DNA of 64,000 bases from the IMG/VR virus record IMGVR_UViG_3300025723_000017, positions 64,001 through 128,000 of that record; one strand, 5' to 3'. Shown in pieces: positions 19,061 through 57,108 of this stretch (the stretch's first letter is position 1; every line of letters starts with the position of its first letter). The stretch is from a virus (taxonomy: Duplodnaviria; Caudoviricetes). The notes under the pieces were generated by a model. The model saw only the letters and a list, made by a program, of their open reading frames with translations. It was not told the DNA's origin and did not search any database. The position numbers were made by a program, and so were the translations under genes.

Positions 19061-19267
19061 TTGCTTACTTTACTTTCTAAACATCCAGTCAACTTAGACC
19101 AGTTGGGAAAAATGGTTAAATATTGTAGACAAACTTTAGGCGAACGTGGCAAGCAATGGGACTATGACGGCGGATTCCGAGTACGATTTAATTTCAAAGA
19201 AGAAAAAGATCGTACTTGGTTTTATTTTATTTTTGCACCTTACTTAGAAGATCCACATGAAAGGTAA
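19061..19267 (+). CDS. Divergent member of the FxL[RK]W small-protein family
   Basis: YCRQTLG...WDY...FNFKEEKDRTWF. Confidence 0.45.
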   Translation: MLTLLSKHPVNLDQLGKMVKYCRQTLGERGKQWDYDGGFRVRFNFKEEKDRTWFYFIFAPYLEDPHER

Positions 19268-20303
19268 ACTAGGATTCGCTTGTAAATGGATTGATACTCC
19301 AGAACAAGTTAATGGCATTAAAGCAACAGACGATGCTAAGAAGTACAACACAGGTGGAACTACAGTAGCTTGGCTTAGTCGCCAATCTAAAGTAGTTGCT
19401 GAACAAAAGCTATGGGATTTAATGACTCAAAACATTGAGTCAACCTATCAACTAGTTAAAAGGGTAAGTGAATTAGATGAGCAGCTTCGCATGGTTCGTA
19501 TTAGTAGTGATATCCTACCAGTGTATACTCACCGGGATTGGAGTTATTTTTGGTGTCAGTCTGACGTTAGGCATTATGCTGAACAGGCGTTTGCTAAAAT
19601 TGGCATGTTGGCTCGTGAGCGTGGGGTGCGTCTTAGCTTTCATCCTGGCCAGTTCACAGTTTTGGCTTCAGATAGTGAAGACATTGTTTCTAGATCAATA
19701 GAGGAGTTTGAATATCATGCAGACATGGCTAGATGGATGGGCTACGGCCAAAAATTCCAAGACTTTAAAATCAACGTCCACATTGCTGGGCGGCAAGGGC
19801 CAGAAGGAATCAGGCGTGTATTGGGACGCCTTAGCCCCGAAGCCCGTAATACCATTACTATTGAAAACGAAGAAAACGCTTGGGGATTAGATGATTGTCT
19901 TACTATCAGTGATATCGTGCCTATTGTTCTTGACGTCCATCACCATTGGTGTCGTGAGGGCGAATACCTCGCAACTGGGGATGATCGCGTACAACGTGTG
20001 CTGGATAGCTGGCGTGGTGTTAGGCCTACTATGCACTATTCTGTAAGCCGCGAAGATTGGCTTCCTGGACATGACGTAACCACATTACCTGATTACAAAT
20101 CATTATTAGAATCTGGACACAAAAAACAGAAACTTAGGGCGCATAGTGATTTTTATTGGAATCGTGCTGTTAACACTTGGGCTTTGGGATTTTTAGATCA
20201 ATTTGATATCATGTGTGAATCAAAAGGTAAAAATCTATCTAGTTATACATTATATGAGCAAATGAAAAATGGAATGGATCACGCCAGTTTGGCAGTATAT
20301 TAA
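19257..20303 (+). CDS. uvsE: UV DNA damage endonuclease
   Basis: LGFACK, RISSD, RLSFHPGQF, INVH, IENEE, LDVHHH, AHSD, MCESKGK. Confidence 0.93.
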   Translation: MKGKLGFACKWIDTPEQVNGIKATDDAKKYNTGGTTVAWLSRQSKVVAEQKLWDLMTQNIESTYQLVKRVSELDEQLRMVRISSDILPVYTHRDWSYFWCQSDVRHYAEQAFAKIGMLARERGVRLSFHPGQFTVLASDSEDIVSRSIEEFEYHADMARWMGYGQKFQDFKINVHIAGRQGPEGIRRVLGRLSPEARNTITIENEENAWGLDDCLTISDIVPIVLDVHHHWCREGEYLATGDDRVQRVLDSWRGVRPTMHYSVSREDWLPGHDVTTLPDYKSLLESGHKKQKLRAHSDFYWNRAVNTWALGFLDQFDIMCESKGKNLSSYTLYEQMKNGMDHASLAVY

Positions 20304-23369: not shown

Positions 23370-24443
23370 ATGTTAAGATACGTTGCATCTTTAGTTCTGG
23401 CTTTACTGACTTCAGTGAGCCAGGCTCAAATATTACCCATAGTAGCACAAGTTCCATTTGGCACAATCGTCACTATTGGACGCTGGCTTACTGAAAATCC
23501 CGATCCAGTTTACTATATAGAAGTTGTGGGTGTGGGCCGTACCGTAGAAGAATCCAAATTAAATGGATTTAGATTGGCAGTGGAACAGGCTGTGGGTTCT
23601 GTACTGGCATCCGAAACAGTGGTAAATGATGCACGGTTAACTCGTGATGAAATTATTTCCTATGCATCCGGATACATAACTCAATTTACTATAGTTGATC
23701 AAACATACGATGCCAATAACGCATCGCGTACAACAATGAAGGTATGGATTAAGAAAAGTATTCTTGCCAATCGTCTGCTACATGAAAGCTCAGCCGCAGG
23801 TGATTTAGAAGGAGCCAAAGCTGCTGTTAATTTGTCATCGTTCCAGTATGAACGAGAGCAAGGGGACAGACTAGTTGGCACTGTGTTAAATGATTTTTAT
23901 CGAATGGGAATGAATATTGAGCTAAAGCCAGCACGTATATCCTTTGATGACGAACGTAACGGCCTAGTGGAAATTCCTTTTCGATTAAGCTGGGATTCTA
24001 AATATATCAATTCACTGTTGGCAGCATATCAAGCCACTGCCCAAAATTCCAGTTACAACCTATGCAGAATCAATTGCAACGGTATCATATCGAATGTCAA
24101 TATATCAGGCATAGTATTGCAGTTTTCCGATGCTGCCAAAGTACAGGCCTTAATTGATGTTATGATATCATCTGAGCCTCAAATTGAACTTACTCTAAGT
24201 TCACTACAGGGTCAAGTGGTGGTTAAACAATGTTTTCATTGGCCTGAATTGGATCATGTGGAAAACGGGCATGTACGTGGTGGGTATTTTGTTACCGTTT
24301 CTCCTATAAGTCCCAATAACGTAGCCGTGAATGGTAATTTTTATATGAATTCTGCGGTTCAAATTAAAACTTCTGCCGAACAATTGAAATTGGCCAGCAA
24401 GGTACAATTGAAATTAGTGCCAGCAGCCAAGTGTTCTGCTTAA
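23370..24443 (+). CDS. Secreted protein
   Basis: Sec signal peptide (SQA cleavage); GVGRTVEE...AVEQAVG motif. Confidence 0.6.
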   Translation: MLRYVASLVLALLTSVSQAQILPIVAQVPFGTIVTIGRWLTENPDPVYYIEVVGVGRTVEESKLNGFRLAVEQAVGSVLASETVVNDARLTRDEIISYASGYITQFTIVDQTYDANNASRTTMKVWIKKSILANRLLHESSAAGDLEGAKAAVNLSSFQYEREQGDRLVGTVLNDFYRMGMNIELKPARISFDDERNGLVEIPFRLSWDSKYINSLLAAYQATAQNSSYNLCRINCNGIISNVNISGIVLQFSDAAKVQALIDVMISSEPQIELTLSSLQGQVVVKQCFHWPELDHVENGHVRGGYFVTVSPISPNNVAVNGNFYMNSAVQIKTSAEQLKLASKVQLKLVPAAKCSA

Positions 24444-24528
24444 ATTTTGTCACATGATATGTGCCATAAATATTTGCTGTTGGCCCGATCTACAGTAAAA
24501 TATATGCAGTTAACCTAGCAGAGCAAAT

Positions 24529-25110
24529 ATGACATCAACTATCTCAGAAGCAGACATCAGTAGCAAAGAACCTGGACAATTATTACAAGATTCGGGTATG
24601 TATGTATTCATGGATGAAGTGAATAATGAAACTATCAAACCCATTGTTGAATGGATACTCTGTGCCAATCATACGGCAAAGAAAAAACGTAAAGAATTAT
24701 TATTGATGATTTGCAGCGAAGGTGGCAGTATGGATCATGCATTTGCCCTAATTGATGTCATGCGTAGCAGCTCCATACCAATTAAAACAGTGGGCTTAGG
24801 TACAATTGCCAGTTCTGGATTGCTGATATTTTTAGCCGGTACTCGGGGTCGTAGAATATTAACTCCCAATACCAGTATATTAAGTCATCAATATTCAGCA
24901 TATACCGAAGGCAAACACCACGAATTATTTTCCATAGCCAAAGAATTTAATTTAGCCAATGAACGTATGGTGGAACATTATCGTGAAACTACAGGTTTAG
25001 ATGAAGCCACTATTAAATCGCAACTACTGCCCACTAGTGATGTTTGGCTTACAGCAGAAGAAGCATTGGCCTTGGGCATTTGCGACTACATAAGTGACCT
25101 TAAAAAATAA
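24529..25110 (+). CDS. Divergent ClpP-like serine protease
   Basis: ICSEGG, GLGTIASSG (Ser), ILSHQ (His), DVWLTAEEALALGICD (Asp). Confidence 0.85.
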   Translation: MTSTISEADISSKEPGQLLQDSGMYVFMDEVNNETIKPIVEWILCANHTAKKKRKELLLMICSEGGSMDHAFALIDVMRSSSIPIKTVGLGTIASSGLLIFLAGTRGRRILTPNTSILSHQYSAYTEGKHHELFSIAKEFNLANERMVEHYRETTGLDEATIKSQLLPTSDVWLTAEEALALGICDYISDLKK

Positions 25111-25120
25111 TAAATAACTA

Positions 25121-26545
25121 ATGCGTTATTATGAATTCCGTTATCTAATAGAAGGTTATCCACAAGCACAAGCTGCTTTTATACAAGCAGGTGCCGACAC
25201 AGCCTCTGTACAAAAAACTATAGCCGACTTCAAACAATTAGTTACACGCAATCAAATAAAAGACATTAATCAAAAGAACATAGACTGGTGGGCAAAACAA
25301 GGTTGGGATAAGTTTAGCCAATTTGTCAATCAAGCAGCAGCCGTACCCAGTAAATCTCAAATTGAAAAAAAGAAATTACCCGGACAAAGTATTAATTTAG
25401 TTGATAATGCTCAATGGTTTATAGTAATTCCACTTGATAAAGATGCCAGTTGTTTTCATGGGAAAAATTCAGATTGGTGTACTACAAAAGTACATCAAAG
25501 TTATTTTGAACAATATTTTTATAATAGACAAGTAACTCTAATATATTGCTTTAATAAATCAACCGGCGGTATGTGGGCCATAGCCGTACATAAAGACACA
25601 GATAAATTCGAAATGTTTGATCAGAAAGATAGAAGTTTAACAGTAGATGAATTTAAACGACAAACCGGGTTAGATCCTGCTCAACTACGTGATATGGCCT
25701 TAGGTGATGTACATCAACCTAAAGTACAAGCCACACGTGATAAATGGAAAGATTCCAAAGCATTGACTAATAAATTATTGAATGACTTACCAGAAAAAAC
25801 TAGATCATCTGAGATAGAAAAACAATTGCTATATAATAAATCTAGAAATGAATGCCTGAAGTATATTCGCAAGATCGGATCAATTGATTCTAATGATTTT
25901 CCATTGGCAATAGAGATAGCAGCAGTTTCACTAGATAGTCATGCAATACAACATATTAAAAATCCAAAACCTATTGTGCAAAAAACAGCAGTTTCACAAT
26001 ATGGTGGAGCAATACAATATATTATCGAAGCTGGTATTACACCCACGGAAGCAGTACAAATAGCAGCAGTTTCAAATGATGGTAGTGCAATAGTTTATAT
26101 TATCGACGCTGGTATTACGCCTAGTGAAGCGGTACAACGGGCAGCAGTTTCACAATATGGTGGAGCAATACTATATATTATCCGCGCTGGTATTACGCCT
26201 AGTGAAGCGGTACAAAAGGCAGCAGTTTCAAATGATGGTAGTGCAATAGTTTATATTATCGACGCTGGTATTACGCCTAGTGAAGCAGTGCAAATAGCAG
26301 CAGTTTCACAATATGGTGGAGCAATACTATATATTATCCGCGCTGGTATTACGCCCACGGAAGCGGTACAAAAAACAGCAGTTTCACAACTTGGTCGTGT
26401 AATACGATATATTATCGACGCTGGGATTAAACCCACGGAAGCAGTACAAATAGCAGCAGTTTCAAATGATGGGCTTGCAATAGAATTTATTATCGACGCT
26501 GGTATTACGCCCAGTAAAGCGGTAAGGCGAGCGTATTACAGCTAG
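25121..26545 (+). CDS. Protein with capsid-targeting-like N-terminus and 25-aa tandem repeats
   Basis: MRYYEFRYLIE; SDWCT motif; about 8 repeats of AAVSxxGxAIxYIIxAGITPSEAVQ. Confidence 0.7.
   Translation: MRYYEFRYLIEGYPQAQAAFIQAGADTASVQKTIADFKQLVTRNQIKDINQKNIDWWAKQGWDKFSQFVNQAAAVPSKSQIEKKKLPGQSINLVDNAQWFIVIPLDKDASCFHGKNSDWCTTKVHQSYFEQYFYNRQVTLIYCFNKSTGGMWAIAVHKDTDKFEMFDQKDRSLTVDEFKRQTGLDPAQLRDMALGDVHQPKVQATRDKWKDSKALTNKLLNDLPEKTRSSEIEKQLLYNKSRNECLKYIRKIGSIDSNDFPLAIEIAAVSLDSHAIQHIKNPKPIVQKTAVSQYGGAIQYIIEAGITPTEAVQIAAVSNDGSAIVYIIDAGITPSEAVQRAAVSQYGGAILYIIRAGITPSEAVQKAAVSNDGSAIVYIIDAGITPSEAVQIAAVSQYGGAILYIIRAGITPTEAVQKTAVSQLGRVIRYIIDAGIKPTEAVQIAAVSNDGLAIEFIIDAGITPSKAVRRAYYS
25915..26540 (+). 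repeat. 75-bp in-frame tandem repeats
   Basis: Units GCAGTTTCA...GCTGGTATTAC alternate between SQYGGAI and SNDGSAI variants. Confidence 0.85.
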
Positions 26546-27807: not shown

Positions 27808-28023
27808 ATGATTATAGTTAAAATACCACATAATGATACTCAGTTACTTGCTACTAAACGTGCCATTAAAATGAGTAATTGGTGTAAGGAAAACGGACTA
27901 GTACATAGTAAGGACTATGATTGGGCATTTAGGAATCTGTCAAATGAAATACACTTTAGATTCTATAGTGATGATCAAAGCCTAGCCACCATGTTTGCAC
28001 TATTATTTAACAAAGGCAGATGA
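27808..28023 (+). CDS. FxL[RK]W family small protein, paralogue of 27309
   Basis: WCKENGL..SKDYDW...FRFYSDDQSLATMFALLF. Confidence 0.7.
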   Translation: MIIVKIPHNDTQLLATKRAIKMSNWCKENGLVHSKDYDWAFRNLSNEIHFRFYSDDQSLATMFALLFNKGR

Positions 28024-28168
28024 CTAAATTACTGTATCTAGATGATACTGTAAGTATGATTCTATACAGTGTGGAGATAGAAAAATTTGTGGCCAAAATT
28101 TTTTGATCAGCTGATTTAAATCCTGATGAAGTTTTTGACCCCTGGGGTCCTACATAGTGGAAGAAGAT

Positions 28169-28221
28169 TGATTTATACGATCCAGGATTGACAAAATTGA
28201 TTTATACGATCCAGGATTGAC
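28169..28221. repeat. Direct repeat GATTTATACGATCCAGGATTGAC x2
   Basis: Near-identical copies at about 28169 and about 28199. Confidence 0.7.
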
Positions 28222-28413
28222 GCAAAGCTAGTATACATACAATGTATTGTAGCTAAAAAACAACACCGGGGTGTCCGAAGTTTTTGAAATAGCTAAATTA
28301 TAGCATGTAATTTTATAAAATGCAAGCGCATAAAATGCAAGCGCATAAAATGCACGCTGTAACGCATTAGTACAGCGTAGTGTACATAATGCGTTACAGC
28401 GTGCTTGCTACGC

Positions 28414-29028
28414 TTACAGCGTGCTTGCTACGCTTACAGTTTGCTTGTTAGCTGTAATGCTAACTAAGTTAGCTAGTGCAATAGTGCGCACTTTTACAGT
28501 ATGTAACACGTTGTTAGCTACGTTGTGCGTTACAGCACTTTGCGCTAGCAGTTTGTTGCGTGCGCTAGCAGTTAAGTATTGTGCTACTTGTAGCTTAGTT
28601 GCTAATTGGCCGTTAATAAAATACATACTGCTAGCGTTGTTAAATATAGCGTATAAGTACAGCGCATTAGTTTGCTTGTGCTTAACTATGCTATGTACGT
28701 TAGTGTGTGTAAAATAGTTACTTTGCGTTGTAAAGTTAGCTACGTTGCTAGCGTTGTTAGCTTCAATATTATTTGCACTTTTTTGTACAGCGTTAGCGTA
28801 AACGTTAGTAAATGCGCTAATGTTGCTAAAAAGTTGCACGTTAGCACTAACTACTTTTTTAATGCTAACTAAGTTGTGTTTTGCGCTAGTAGCTACTTGC
28901 GTAACGTAGCATACGTTAGCAAACGTAGTGCTTTTGTTAGCAAGTAATACTTGTATAGTTTGTGCGCTAATTGTGTTAGCGTTAGCGTGTGCTGTAAGTG
29001 CTTGTTGTGCTTGCTGTAAATTTAACAT
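28414..29028 (-). CDS. Early hypothetical protein lacking D/P/W
   Basis: 204 aa; three stacked promoters upstream; one E and one G only. Confidence 0.7.
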   Translation of the reverse strand: MLNLQQAQQALTAHANANTISAQTIQVLLANKSTTFANVCYVTQVATSAKHNLVSIKKVVSANVQLFSNISAFTNVYANAVQKSANNIEANNASNVANFTTQSNYFTHTNVHSIVKHKQTNALYLYAIFNNASSMYFINGQLATKLQVAQYLTASARNKLLAQSAVTHNVANNVLHTVKVRTIALANLVSITANKQTVSVASTL

Positions 29029-29074
29029 TTTTGTTTACGCTTATAAAATGTGTTTAAGTTGTTTACTGCAACTA

Positions 29075-29282
29075 AATTATACTGCTAACTGCGCTAATTT
29101 GCAAGTGCTACTTTGTTGCAAAAAAACAACGCTTGCTAACTGCTGTACTGCTTACTATGCAGTAATTATACTGCTAACTGCGCTAATTTGCAAGTGCTAC
29201 TTTGTTGCAAAAAAACAACGCTTGCTAACTGCTGTACTGCTTACTATGCAGTAATTATACTACTTGCGTAGCTAATACGCAA
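29075..29282 (-). repeat. 89-bp tandem repeat of stacked promoters (TTGCAA-N17-TATAAT) with GTTG-N8-CAAC
   Basis: Units start at 29075, 29164 and 29253; related copies at about 29697 and 29788. Confidence 0.85.
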
Positions 29283-29297
29283 GTAGTATTTTGTAAG

Positions 29298-29645
29298 TTA
29301 TGCGCTAGCAAATAAGCGCAACAATACGCTATTGTTGTCCGTTGTTACAATTTGCGCATTGTAACGCTTTGCAATAATTAGCAAGTTAGTGCATACTTGC
29401 GCTTTAGCTACTTTAACTGCTATAAACTTAGCACGCAAGTTAGTATAAACACGCTTAGTAAAATATTGTGCTTGTACTGCTTGCGCTAGTGCTTGCGCTT
29501 GTGCGTGTTGTTCGTTTGTGTACAAGTGCGCATTTTTTGCATTTTGCGCTTGCACTTGTAACACGCTTATATAACGTGCGTGCTTTACAGCGTTGTTTTT
29601 TGTTGTTAAAACAACGTGCGCTACTGCTTGAGGCTTTTTTTGCAT
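29298..29645 (-). CDS. Early hypothetical protein
   Basis: Two promoters upstream; leader AAGCGTAAACAAAATG shared with the 29028 gene. Confidence 0.65.
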   Translation of the reverse strand: MQKKPQAVAHVVLTTKNNAVKHARYISVLQVQAQNAKNAHLYTNEQHAQAQALAQAVQAQYFTKRVYTNLRAKFIAVKVAKAQVCTNLLIIAKRYNAQIVTTDNNSVLLRLFASA

Positions 29646-30002
29646 TTTGTTTACGCTTTATAAAATGTTGTTAAGCTACTTGTTTACTGCAAGCTAAATT
29701 ATACTGCTAACTGTGCTAATTTGCAAGTGCTATTTTGTTGCACGTTTACAACACTTGCTAACTGCTGTACTGCTGTACTGCAAGCTAAATTATACTGCGC
29801 ATTGTTTTAATTTGCAAGTGCTATTTTGTTGCAAAAAAACAACGTAATTAACGCTTGCAATTTAGCGCAAACGACTTTACAATGTAGTTGTTGTTAGCAG
29901 TTAGCAGTTAGCAAGTGTTGTTTTTTTGCAACAAAGTAGTGCTTGCAAGTTAGCGCAAAATGCGTTACAATGTAGTTGTTGTTAACAAAAAGGAGCTGTA
30001 CT

Positions 30003-30233
30003 ATGTTAAATAGCACAAACGTTCGTCGCCTAGGCGAGATGGCGGCAGAATTTGGCCTTGATTCTTTTTTCAGCACAATGCGAGTGTTGCATAATTGCGA
30101 CAACAAAGACCAGCTTAATACGCAGGACGAAGCTGTACTGTATAACATAGCAGAGGAAGCTGTGCAATACGTTGTGCAGTATCAAATGTCAGCACTAAAA
30201 GAAGCTTTAGCAGAACTTAACGCTAAAGTGTAA
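30003..30233 (+). CDS. Early hypothetical protein
   Basis: TTGCAA-N17-TACAAT promoter, AAGGAG RBS. Confidence 0.65.
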   Translation: MLNSTNVRRLGEMAAEFGLDSFFSTMRVLHNCDNKDQLNTQDEAVLYNIAEEAVQYVVQYQMSALKEALAELNAKV

Positions 30234-35081: not shown

Positions 35082-35173
35082 TTTTGTCTACGCTTATGAA
35101 AAATTGTTTAACTTGTTACTGTAAAACTATTATACTGCCTAACTAACTAATAGTCAAGCAGTATAACATTACG

Positions 35174-35500
35174 TTAGCAAAAAATGTCGTCATGCAGTGC
35201 ATAGTCCATGTACATAGTGCCGTCTTCTAGCACCACTACGCTTACATTGTTAGTGTAGCAACTTGTGCTGCCGCTCATATCGCCCATTACTGCCAACGCC
35301 TCTACTACTTGCACGCTAACAATTTTGTCTGCAATATTAGCAAAGTCCTGCACTGTGTCGTATGCGTCCTCGTCCAGTGTGTAGCACGCCAGCAACGCTG
35401 TGTCGTCTCCGTCATAGTCTTTAACATCGTCTGCTATGTCAGTGTTTTTAACTTGCGTTAGCTTAATAAACTGCTTGCCCAAATCTTGTGCTATAAACAT
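35174..35500 (-). CDS. Acidic early protein
   Basis: Asp-rich 108 aa; TTGCAA-type promoter. Confidence 0.6.
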   Translation of the reverse strand: MFIAQDLGKQFIKLTQVKNTDIADDVKDYDGDDTALLACYTLDEDAYDTVQDFANIADKIVSVQVVEALAVMGDMSGSTSCYTNNVSVVVLEDGTMYMDYALHDDIFC

Positions 35501-35734
35501 ATACGCTCCGTTTTGTTTACTGTAACTAAATTATACTGCTAACTACGCTAATTTGCAAGTAGTGTTTTGTTGCTGCTCAACAACACTAACTAACTGCACT
35601 ACAACTAGATTATAAAGCAGTATTATTAAAAAGTCAACCCCTTCAAAGTGTTGTATGTATACAACATTGATAAAGCTCTTGACAATTACGTCATTATGCA
35701 CTATAATTATTTAAGTTAACAAACGGGACAAATT

Positions 35735-39119: not shown

Positions 39120-39407
39120 TTATACAGCGTCTTCGACAATCGACAGCATATTGGCTGGCACTTTCCAAAGTCCGTCTATGGTCTTAACCGTTACAAACTT
39201 CTGTGCAATCTTAGTCACATGGCCAGTGATGTTTCTGCCAGTGCGGCTGCTGGTAAAGTTCACGTTCACGCCCAGCGAAAGTTCACGCTTGACATCCTTG
39301 ACCAACTCACTACGAGCATACCTAATAGCTTCTGACAGTAAGTTTAATTCGTCGTTGTTAAAGTTACTGAATTGAATAGCATAGCGAACTTCTTGTAATG
39401 TCTTCAT
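39120..39407 (-). CDS. Early hypothetical protein (SH3-like C-terminus)
   Basis: GHVTKIAQK...WKVPANML. Confidence 0.6.
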   Translation of the reverse strand: MKTLQEVRYAIQFSNFNNDELNLLSEAIRYARSELVKDVKRELSLGVNVNFTSSRTGRNITGHVTKIAQKFVTVKTIDGLWKVPANMLSIVEDAV

Positions 39408-39454
39408 CTTCAACTCCGTTGTGTTAGTGTATAACTATTATAACCAAAATTGAA

Positions 39455-39910
39455 TCAATTGTCAACCAGTTCAGCTTGCAAGTCTGGACCCAGCTCAACA
39501 AAATCGCGACCATAAGAACGATAGTACCATACGCCATCGTTGCGCAGGATGTAATCAAATTCCTTACTGCGCCCGGAGATTTTATACATGCCAAAGTCCC
39601 AATAACTCTGGGCTTGACACTTTGTCTCACCACGATCACGAGCGTAAAACGTAGTCATTTTGTCGTATAACCGATCATACTCCCGTAAGTCCATGCCTGC
39701 CTCGGCGGCACTGAACGGATGCTGAACCCCAATCGTCGGGGCTAGGCTGCTGATGTCGCCCAGATCAATAAGCTGGCGCAATTGAGTAGGGTCCGAGTAA
39801 TGATCCCGCAATAGCCGCCCATTAAAACTCAAATAGCCATCCCAGTGGCAGTACACTTGTTTAACTGTACCGTCTGCGAGTTCGATTGCGATAGTTGACC
39901 GTGTTGCCAT
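39455..39910 (-). CDS. Conserved hypothetical phage protein
   Basis: MATRSTI...VYCHWDGY; ends VDN* inside the next -35 box. Confidence 0.7.
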   Translation of the reverse strand: MATRSTIAIELADGTVKQVYCHWDGYLSFNGRLLRDHYSDPTQLRQLIDLGDISSLAPTIGVQHPFSAAEAGMDLREYDRLYDKMTTFYARDRGETKCQAQSYWDFGMYKISGRSKEFDYILRNDGVWYYRSYGRDFVELGPDLQAELVDN

Positions 39911-56763: not shown

Positions 56764-57108
56764 ATGAATAGTCACCAAAGAAGAATTGCAAAGCGTAAGA
56801 GCATGCAGGATCGGCGTAAAAGGATAGATATACTATTTGAAAAGATCGTCCCGTTCTACTACGCTTCTGTTTCGCCGGTATACACCATTACTCTTAATAT
56901 TCGTTTTCCTAATTTCACTATTGTAGACCATGCAATGTATGATTATGTACCCGACAACTATTGCATAGTGCAGGTACTGTCAAAGGTTGCTGATTGGATA
57001 GAACAGCAGGATATTACACTTTGGAAACCTGATGATTCCAACAACCATCTTCAGAGATATATTATATCCAATGAGTTATATTCATTGATGGCATTAAGGT
57101 GGTCATGA
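56764..57108 (+). CDS. FxL[RK]W family variant
   Basis: ISNELYSLMALRWS. Confidence 0.65.
   Translation: MNSHQRRIAKRKSMQDRRKRIDILFEKIVPFYYASVSPVYTITLNIRFPNFTIVDHAMYDYVPDNYCIVQVLSKVADWIEQQDITLWKPDDSNNHLQRYIISNELYSLMALRWS

Follow-up and report, generated by a model that had tools for sequence, protein, structure and literature searches.

In a 64,000-nt stretch of viral DNA (hereafter, the window; bases 64001–128000 of a 154,059-bp contig, IMG/VR record IMGVR_UViG_3300025723_000017, 45% complete according to CheckV), a 1,705-bp tract (28287–29991; positions refer to the window unless otherwise indicated) contains almost none of the dinucleotides GA, GG, TC and CC, which together correspond to the double-stranded step 5′-GR/YC-3′ (R, purine; Y, pyrimidine). 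The tract, from a T4-like jumbo phage, consists of two early expression cassettes and a divergent promoter block, and selection has rewritten the two real, first-expressed genes along with their promoters and terminators so that these dinucleotides are nearly excluded. The depletion, which was noticed in a preliminary description of the sequence, was fully confirmed and is broader than first described.

Size and uniqueness of the depletion

In the region 28291–29990, GA, TC, GG and CC occur 2, 3, 2 and 2 times, respectively, whereas 91, 105, 70 and 50 occurrences are expected from the base composition. The exact count for 28287–29991 is likewise 9, against approximately 316 expected (Poisson P(X≤9 | 316) ~1e-120); the nine occurrences counted by eye in the preliminary description were thus exactly reproduced. 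Eight of them are located at codons of two minus-strand genes, namely those for G140 and E89 in the 204-aa gene and those for D103 (including a codon junction), E45 and P5 in the 115-aa gene, and the earlier statement that eight of the nine fall at rare G, E, D or P codons therefore holds codon by codon. The ninth is a GA at 29873, inside the spacer of a rightward promoter. Sliding 500-bp windows across the 154,059-bp contig gave 0.01–0.10 of expectation in the tract and 0.38 as the next lowest value elsewhere, showing that the tract is the only such stretch in the contig.

The G+C content of the tract (37%) is close to that of the contig (38%), AC and GC are enriched, and GC is enriched three-fold. 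Because G+C is retained and GC is in excess, the depletion is a constraint on neighbouring bases and not a loss of C or G through hypermutation. Although YC is the context of many cytosine deaminases, a footprint of a YC deaminase acting on both strands, or an artefact of assembly, has practically no probability, being refuted by the base composition just given, by amino acid replacements that do not follow C-to-T or G-to-A changes (see below) and by intact open reading frames (ORFs) conserved in >300 independent assemblies.

Organization of the tract

The genome encodes a gp15-like tail protein, a T4-type terminase, UvsW- and DnaB-like helicases, a ribonucleotide reductase, a ligase and ClpX/ClpP, and the phage is a T4-like myovirus belonging to the uncultured giant (jumbo) phages. 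A gene for a UvdE-type ultraviolet (UV) damage endonuclease is located at 19257–20303 (Pfam E-value, 5e-39). The late genes on the plus strand end at 28023, and the tract lies between this late operon and a long early region. It is internal to the contig and apparently not at a fixed genome end such as the first-step-transfer (FST) DNA of T5 or the early end of T7, and the T4-type terminase suggests headful packaging with permuted ends. The features of the tract and its borders are as follows.

28262–28285, minus strand: left-boundary hairpin and U-run ending the leftward unit; CC, GG and GA first reappear here
28343–28413, minus strand: long perfect hairpin immediately after the stop codon of the 204-aa gene, containing allowed dinucleotides only and followed by AUUUUAU repeats
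28414–29028, minus strand: 204-aa gene
29029–29052, minus strand: leader of the 204-aa gene, with UAAGCG where a Shine–Dalgarno sequence is expected
29075–29252, minus strand: two identical 89-bp promoter modules for the 204-aa gene (TTGCAA-N17-TATAAT; −35 boxes at 29104 and 29193)
29255–29283, minus strand: hairpin (CTACTTGCG..CGCAAGTAG) 3′ of the 115-aa gene, read from the sequence and containing allowed dinucleotides only
29298–29645, minus strand: 115-aa gene
29697–29817, minus strand: two more copies of the promoter module for the 115-aa gene (−35 boxes at 29726 and 29817)
29846–29991, plus strand: two rightward promoters (TTGCAA-N17-TACAAT; 29855 and 29943) and the leader of the gene at 30003–30233
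30003–30233, plus strand: first gene beyond the tract, of normal composition and with a strong AAAGGAG site, marking the right boundary

Both edges are sharp. The abrupt left boundary reported previously coincides with the terminator-like hairpin at 28262–28285, but the rightward fading reported with it was not found: the right edge, at the AAAGGAG site (29992) of the gene at 30003–30233, is equally abrupt. The 186 nt spanning the 3′ hairpin of the 204-aa gene have a folding energy of −70.3 kcal/mol (z, −6.7). One arm of this hairpin is formed by three tandem 20-nt units (TTACAGCGTGCTTGCTACGC) at 28394–28453, which extend over the final codons of the gene and its stop codon.

All six promoters in the tract have TTGCAA as the −35 box, where the earlier observation gave TTGCAA or TTGCGT in place of TTGACA. 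The AAGCG leaders noted at the same time were also found: UAAGCG precedes both the 204-aa gene and the 115-aa gene (29646–29669), at the place where other cassettes carry GGAG. The rightward promoter block (29846–29991) is an inverted copy of the leftward module, and its depletion may thus be inherited. TTGCAA is its own reverse complement, and the promoter module occurs four times in direct and twice in inverted orientation within 29075–29988; a single module therefore serves both directions.

The two encoded proteins

The 204-aa protein contains no D, P or W and only one E and one G, exactly as described previously, and the 115-aa protein contains one D, one E and one P but no G or W. The former has >300 homologues in public metagenomes, and the latter has eight close homologues as well as relatives in two of the related loci described below (L002 and L003). 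In a Markov simulation using the dinucleotide statistics of the tract itself, the longest chance ORF was 135 codons. Both genes are real, because simulated ORFs do not exceed this length (relevant to the 204-aa gene), homologues exist and the predicted structures fold.

The AlphaFold model of the 204-aa protein (predicted local distance difference test score (pLDDT), 89; predicted template modelling score, 0.83) contains an Sm-like small barrel. Its top match is the Rho inhibitor YaeO/Rof (6jie_A; Z, 5.9; root-mean-square deviation, 2.3; 69 of 77 residues), but this match is tied with WYL and Hfq folds and lies below the Z of ~8 that commonly arises by chance; the resemblance to Rof is a lead rather than an assignment. 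The model of the 115-aa protein (pLDDT, 78, which is fair) comprises two helices and an alpha/beta sandwich, and matches only common folds (Z ≤6.5). Neither of these two proteins, nor any of ten acidic proteins (see below), could be assigned to a family with Pfam, PHROGs, PDB profiles, Foldseek searches against PDB, or ESM Atlas, and structure matches in BFVD were to uncharacterised viral proteins only. Near and distant DNA and protein searches detected no relatives of the tract or of the 204-aa family among cultured phages.

Recoding in homologous genes

Composition was examined in the best 120 of the >300 homologues of the 204-aa protein, and DNA context in 20 IMG/VR loci (L001–L020). Almost all of the 120 homologues lack D, E, G, P and W. 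Most of the homologous genes in the 20 loci reside in purged DNA, and three of them contain none of the four dinucleotides in ~600 nt, whereas five distant homologues (L002, L005 and L018–L020; 39–52% identity) are of normal composition and contain D, E, G and P in abundance. The preliminary description had asked whether homologues contain these residues, which the distant ones do at normal levels, and had regarded normal dinucleotide content in relatives as a sign against its interpretation; such content was found in these five, most homologous loci being purged.

Relative to the normal homologues, the replacements are D to N, A or S; E to T, S or Q; G to N or K; P to A or K; and W to Y. These replacements are chemically sensible and are not products of one mutation type, and a comparison of the homologues thus indicates that the family has been recoded. 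The purged homologues are mutually only 51–68% identical, and each retains 0–9 forbidden steps; as they differ to this extent, the ban is old and has been maintained through long divergence. The earlier proposal of selection against 5′-GR/YC-3′ holds across these homologues: the ban overrides amino acid choice, the −35 consensus and the Shine–Dalgarno sequence while G+C is kept. In locus L002, the gene of the 204-aa family is normal but the adjoining relative of the 115-aa gene is purged, indicating that the ban belongs to the cassette and not to the protein family.

Strand rule and sister cassettes

ORFs were called in 18 related loci and scored on the message strand. The affected ORFs were classified into four types.

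29 ORFs: both TC/CC and GA/GG lost on the message strand
15 ORFs: TC/CC lost and GA/GG halved on the message strand
17 ORFs: TC/CC lost and GA/GG near normal on the message strand
3 ORFs: GA/GG alone lost on the message strand; these look like antisense artefacts and are probably spurious

In total, 61 ORFs are thus low in message-strand YC, compared with 3 that are low in GR alone. The primary rule is the removal of TC/CC from the message strand (i.e. of GA/GG from the template strand), and loss of GA/GG from the message is only added on top. In the ‘TC/CC only’ genes, just 2–6% of the expected TC/CC remain, whichever of the three codon phases is considered and codon junctions included, and the same holds for leaders. 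Avoidable GA/GG at codon junctions are halved in these genes and reduced to 2–3% of expectation in the genes purged of both sets, and in the regulatory DNA from −90 to 0 both sets are scarce in both gene classes. The proteins of the ‘TC/CC only’ genes are very acidic, and these genes retain a GGAG site; message-strand GA/GG are also removed in genes whose proteins can spare D, E, G and W.

The asymmetry of the depletion tracks gene orientation in both directions. A fixed effect of the genome strand (replication or packaging) was ruled out by this flip, and a codon or tRNA cause by the purge of all three codon phases and of non-coding leaders.

A cassette of the message-strand-only type is also present in the window.

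35099–35607, minus strand: sister cassette with tandem promoters, a GGAG site and a gene for an acidic 108-aa protein (35174–35500)

Its message contains no TC/CC in 509 nt, including the leader, and near-normal GA/GG. The partial recurrence at 34.5–36.0 kb mentioned in the preliminary description therefore applies to GA/GG, which are absent from the plus strand at 35099–35607, but not to TC/CC, which are normal on that strand. The affected DNA of this genome comprises the tract, the cassette at 35.1–35.6 kb and, in part, its two neighbours, i.e. only a few of ~80 sigma70-type cassettes; ~70 other cassettes with TTGACA-N17-TATAAT promoters are normal. The purge is all-or-none per cassette.

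The locus L012 (3174–11515) contains 11 consecutive early cassettes that are nearly free of message-strand TC/CC over 8.3 kb, and 71 of its 76 exceptional YC steps are located in a conserved CCCC...GGGG hairpin between the terminator and the next promoter. Each unit of this array is arranged in the order of a bidirectional terminator (AAAAGCAAGC..GCTTGCTTTTTTT), ~60 nt, the hairpin (CGCGCCCC..GCCCCGCTGC..GGGGCAC), an AT-rich stretch and a TTGCAT-N17-TATAAT promoter. Possible roles of the hairpin are insulation, Rho loading and recombination.

These data bear on two explanations that do not involve transcription. The first, that the tract is a first-injected end or an anti-defence island dodging restriction, phosphorothioate or CRISPR protospacer adjacent motif (PAM) sites (CC, TTC and NGG), is very improbable. 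Many PAMs and restriction sites do contain one of the four steps, and both strands are purged in the tract. However, a first-injected end, as proposed in the preliminary description, is not supported, given the internal location of the tract, the T4-type terminase and the arrays of such cassettes in relatives, and the sister cassettes are purged on the message strand only, following gene orientation, which no reader of double-stranded sites predicts. Nor is there the depletion of palindromic sites that characterizes first-step-transfer DNA: the tract contains several times more palindromic 4- and 6-mers of allowed steps than expected (TGCA, 27 vs 5.6 expected; GCGC, 23 vs 2.0; AGCT, 13 vs 5.6; GCTAGC, 5 vs 0.2), as the preliminary description had stated. 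Cuts elsewhere in the genome would kill the phage in any case.

The second explanation, avoidance of damage hot spots, is less probable still. TC and CC are sites of (6-4) photoproducts, GG and GA are the contexts in which the 5′ G is most easily oxidised, and this freshwater phage encodes a UvdE endonuclease. Nevertheless, TT, where most dimers form, shows no depletion (237 observed vs 222 expected), lesions at any one site are much too infrequent to drive the removal of individual sites when amino acids have to be sacrificed for it, and only a few cassettes are affected. The earlier suggestion that UV-mutable TC/CC are avoided is also at odds with the order of the purge, as the message strand is purged first whereas blocking dipyrimidine lesions matter on the template. 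We infer that the remaining type of reader is tied to transcription and counts single sites, a C after a pyrimidine in the message (or in the non-template strand) being a G before a purine in the template.

A mark on G of GA and GG as the favoured explanation

With a probability of about 0.35, we favour the explanation that the G of 5′-GR-3′ in the DNA carries a bulky mark that the host RNA polymerase cannot handle. A single reader would act site by site on the double-stranded GR/YC step, and the mark would be placed either by a modification system of the phage or by an anti-phage enzyme of the host. The host sigma70 polymerase would fail to start at a promoter marked on either strand (e.g. 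at the G of TTGACA), and a marked template strand would be read badly. The few purged cassettes would then be the genes that stay readable while the remaining DNA is marked, and the Sm-like 204-aa protein, the 115-aa protein and the acidic sister proteins may be the first or most protected tools of infection. A more specific form, to which we lean less, is that freshwater T4-like giant phages possess a novel GR-marking system without a recognisable DpdA and that ‘pioneer’ cassettes alone are readable in a code of 12 dinucleotides. If this form is true, the purge would be a sequence-only read-out of the specificity of the mark, and the purged genes would be factors that unlock the remaining genome.

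Several observations agree with this explanation. As the two purged sets are exact reverse complements, one double-stranded step would be more economical than two RNA readers. The purge acts at the nucleotide level, with both the Shine–Dalgarno sequence and the −35 consensus given up, it follows gene orientation, and it removes both sets from the regulatory DNA even of the ‘TC/CC only’ cassettes, whereas forbidden steps are tolerated in the inter-unit hairpins of L012. FolE, QueD, QueC-like and radical-SAM genes are spread over two related jumbo genomes (G018 and G014). DpdA enzymes insert dPreQ0 at GA and GGC in phage CAjan (PMC7544227) and strictly at GA in phage iggy (PMC10484667), so that a G before a purine, a context of the same dinucleotide size as the purged step, is recognized, and because these systems modify nearly every site, the effect would be exerted per site. 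In vitro, 7-substituted 7-deazaguanines nearly abolish transcription by the Escherichia coli and Bacillus subtilis polymerases, mainly at initiation, with the −35 G named as sensitive (PMC4838386), which fits the switch from TTGACA to TTGCAA.

A number of results weigh against it. TGT/DpdA (PF01702) was found neither in the contig nor in 32 related records, one 100% and one 91% complete, in a search that covered the 18 records behind L001–L020 and 14 records of the terminase clade; these are mostly fragments, and a divergent DpdA may escape PF01702. A search for dpdA, queC and folE had been proposed in the preliminary description, and neither these nor any of the other preQ0 genes looked for (QueD and QueE) was detected in this contig, which is 45% complete; genes for C5 or N6/N4 methyltransferases and thymidylate-synthase-like genes were not found in it either. 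G018 and G014, which carry preQ0 genes, contain no purged stretch of at least 200 nt. The complete or near-complete relatives G018, G019 and G014, in which neither a purged stretch nor DpdA was found, do not bear on whether the two go together. No islands were seen in CAjan, although its DNA is modified at GA; the longest stretch without GA there is 159 nt, which is about the chance level. The ~70 unpurged consensus promoters would also be silenced by a polymerase-blocking mark. In vitro, the 7-deazaguanine substituents acted at initiation and produced no shorter transcripts (PMC4838386), and an initiation block therefore does not predict a purge of gene bodies. Finally, the promoter modules are direct or inverted copies of each other; since their purge may be inherited with the copied blocks, we gave it less weight as evidence for an effect at the DNA level. 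The earlier idea that the tract must remain free of a G modification at GA and GG stands as the best single one, yet it is unproven in view of the negative DpdA searches in 33 records, the island-free genome of CAjan and the unpurged promoters.

A mark inflicted by the host would escape four of these objections, namely the missing DpdA, the mismatch between preQ0 genes and purged cassettes, CAjan and the unpurged promoters. To our knowledge, there is no example of a host mark with a GR/YC context. DarT1 has no clear motif (PMC11543638).

Gene clusters that include FolE were seen in the two related jumbo genomes. In G018 (complete, 363 kb, with terminal repeats), genes for FolE, QueD, thymidylate synthase and a SpoVR-like protein are clustered at 57000–74000 (L025), and a weak QueC-like match is located at 202.6 kb; no purged cassette is present anywhere in this genome. 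In G014 (327 kb), the region L024:8247-13658 encodes FolE with a fused N-terminal extension, a phosphoribosyltransferase, an IMPDH/GMP-reductase-like protein, a weak radical-SAM match and an FkbM-type methyltransferase, but no TGT was found in this cluster, which may represent a purine or deazapurine pathway. In CAjan (L165), five small minus-strand genes (gp26–gp30; 24091–25334) have 0.40–0.64 of the expected message-strand TC, and a 241-nt TC-free stretch is present at 39243–39483 (~0.007 expected by chance). These low-TC genes may represent a faint version of the same effect.

Evasion of Rho and dinucleotide-specific toxins as possible alternatives

Two further explanations were also considered. 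The first, evasion of the termination factor Rho, strikes us as improbable, though it merits attention: transcripts without 5′-YC-3′ would deny Rho a loading site on weakly translated early RNAs, and the 204-aa protein might act as a Rof-like Rho antagonist that frees the remaining early genes. Phages are known to neutralise Rho, as exemplified by Psu of P4. The clefts of the Rho primary binding site bind 5′-YC (PMC12360218 and PMC11018626), i.e. the step that is purged here from the nascent message, and Rho added in vitro limits T4 transcription to immediate-early RNA (PMC2988021). The primary rule is precisely that no C on the message follows a pyrimidine, AC and GC being enriched, and the message of the tract has only 4 YC in ~1.5 kb, as would be the case for a transcript free of Rho utilization (rut) sites. 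The tract genes lack Shine–Dalgarno sequences, and their RNA would thus be poorly covered by ribosomes. In the rightward unit, only the 100-nt leader is purged and the coding region behind it, which is strongly translated, has normal composition, as expected if untranslated RNA is what needs protection; in addition, YaeO/Rof, the best structural hit to the 204-aa model, inhibits Rho.

On the other hand, evasion of Rho leaves the loss of GA/GG unexplained, despite its cost in Shine–Dalgarno sequences and in D, E, G and W. Rho reads RNA only and requires clusters of YC, and it seems excessive that every isolated site should be eliminated and all proline sacrificed; moreover, the message remains rich in C (C > G). 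The purge also covers promoter DNA, but as the modules concerned are direct or inverted duplicates it may be inherited there. Ribosomes should already shield the ‘YC-only’ cassettes, which have strong GGAG sites, no islands are seen in the first 50 kb of T4 (its early region), and the Rof match, with a Z under the chance level of ~8 and tied with WYL and Hfq barrels, is weak.

The second explanation is that the messages are proof against a toxin or shut-off factor, a dinucleotide-specific enzyme that disables ordinary transcripts or exposed single strands; we regard it as another improbable but serious alternative. Candidates are an abortive-infection ADP-ribosyltransferase or HEPN RNase of the host and a phage shut-off factor of the T4 Alc/EndoIV kind, and site-free cassettes, for example those encoding an antidote, would keep working. 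The all-or-none pattern, restricted to few of ~80 cassettes, fits a single-hit reader better than a graded effect, and acidic sister proteins without a family match would be compatible with anti-defence proteins that mimic DNA. We know of no enzyme that targets YC or the GR/YC pair.

Enzymes that share some of these properties have been described. CmdT, a defence against T-even phages, attaches ADP-ribose to GA in single-stranded mRNA (PMC11618068). The targets of DarT2 and ScARP are TNTC in single-stranded DNA and G and C, respectively (PMC12945103 and PMC11543638). CmdT and DarT2 are therefore single-hit readers of single-stranded motifs of two to four bases that act against T-even-like phages, as a reader of this kind would; unlike such a reader, however, they do not target YC or GR/YC and are triggered late by the capsid, and no gene for a cognate antidote was recognised in the tract. 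Alc of T4 causes the polymerase to terminate at numerous discrete positions when the cytosine of the DNA is unmodified (PMC2988021). It is similar in its origin from a T4-type phage, its coupling to transcription, its site-by-site reading of cytosine and its sparing of signal-free DNA, but T4 escapes it by modifying all cytosines and not by removing sites. Two independent RNA readers with exactly reverse-complementary specificities would moreover be a coincidence, the purge extends (though possibly by inheritance) to regulatory DNA located before the probable start sites of transcription, and no NADAR gene was found. T4 DenB and Ndd gave no match in tblastn searches, which are of low sensitivity, against this genome and its relatives.

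Relation to known sequence avoidance

Avoidance of restriction sites and other oligonucleotides is known in phages, and footprints of APOBEC3 at TC and of ZAP at CpG are known in eukaryotic viruses. In these systems, as is proposed here, a sequence-specific reader of nucleic acids shapes viral composition by selection. The purge differs in being local, essentially absolute and oriented by transcription, and in costing five amino acids, the −35 consensus and the ribosome-binding site. It is an extreme variant of sequence avoidance that acts on one two-base step and per cassette, and no description of such a purge was found in the literature searched.

The strength of the purge implies a very potent reader of GA/GG (or TC/CC) in widespread uncultured giant phages or their hosts. 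As the purge is detectable from sequence alone, it flags the most protected genes, which are candidate anti-defence or takeover factors. In addition, the encoded proteins illustrate how natural proteins can fold when D, E, G, P and W are left out, and the cassettes provide ready-made promoters, terminators and genes that would be blind to tools or defences requiring these dinucleotides.

Minor features in and near the tract

Overlapping the tract genes, the plus strand carries two Cys- and Leu-rich antisense ORFs (28421–28717 and 28928–29254; 98 and 108 aa, respectively). These are unlikely to be genes, because a TGA-free composition yields ORFs of such lengths by chance (mean of 79 and maximum of 135 codons in the simulation). 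Two direct copies of a ~27-nt sequence (GATTGATTTATACGATCCAGGATTGAC) are located at 28160–28225, in DNA of normal composition between the late operon and the tract.

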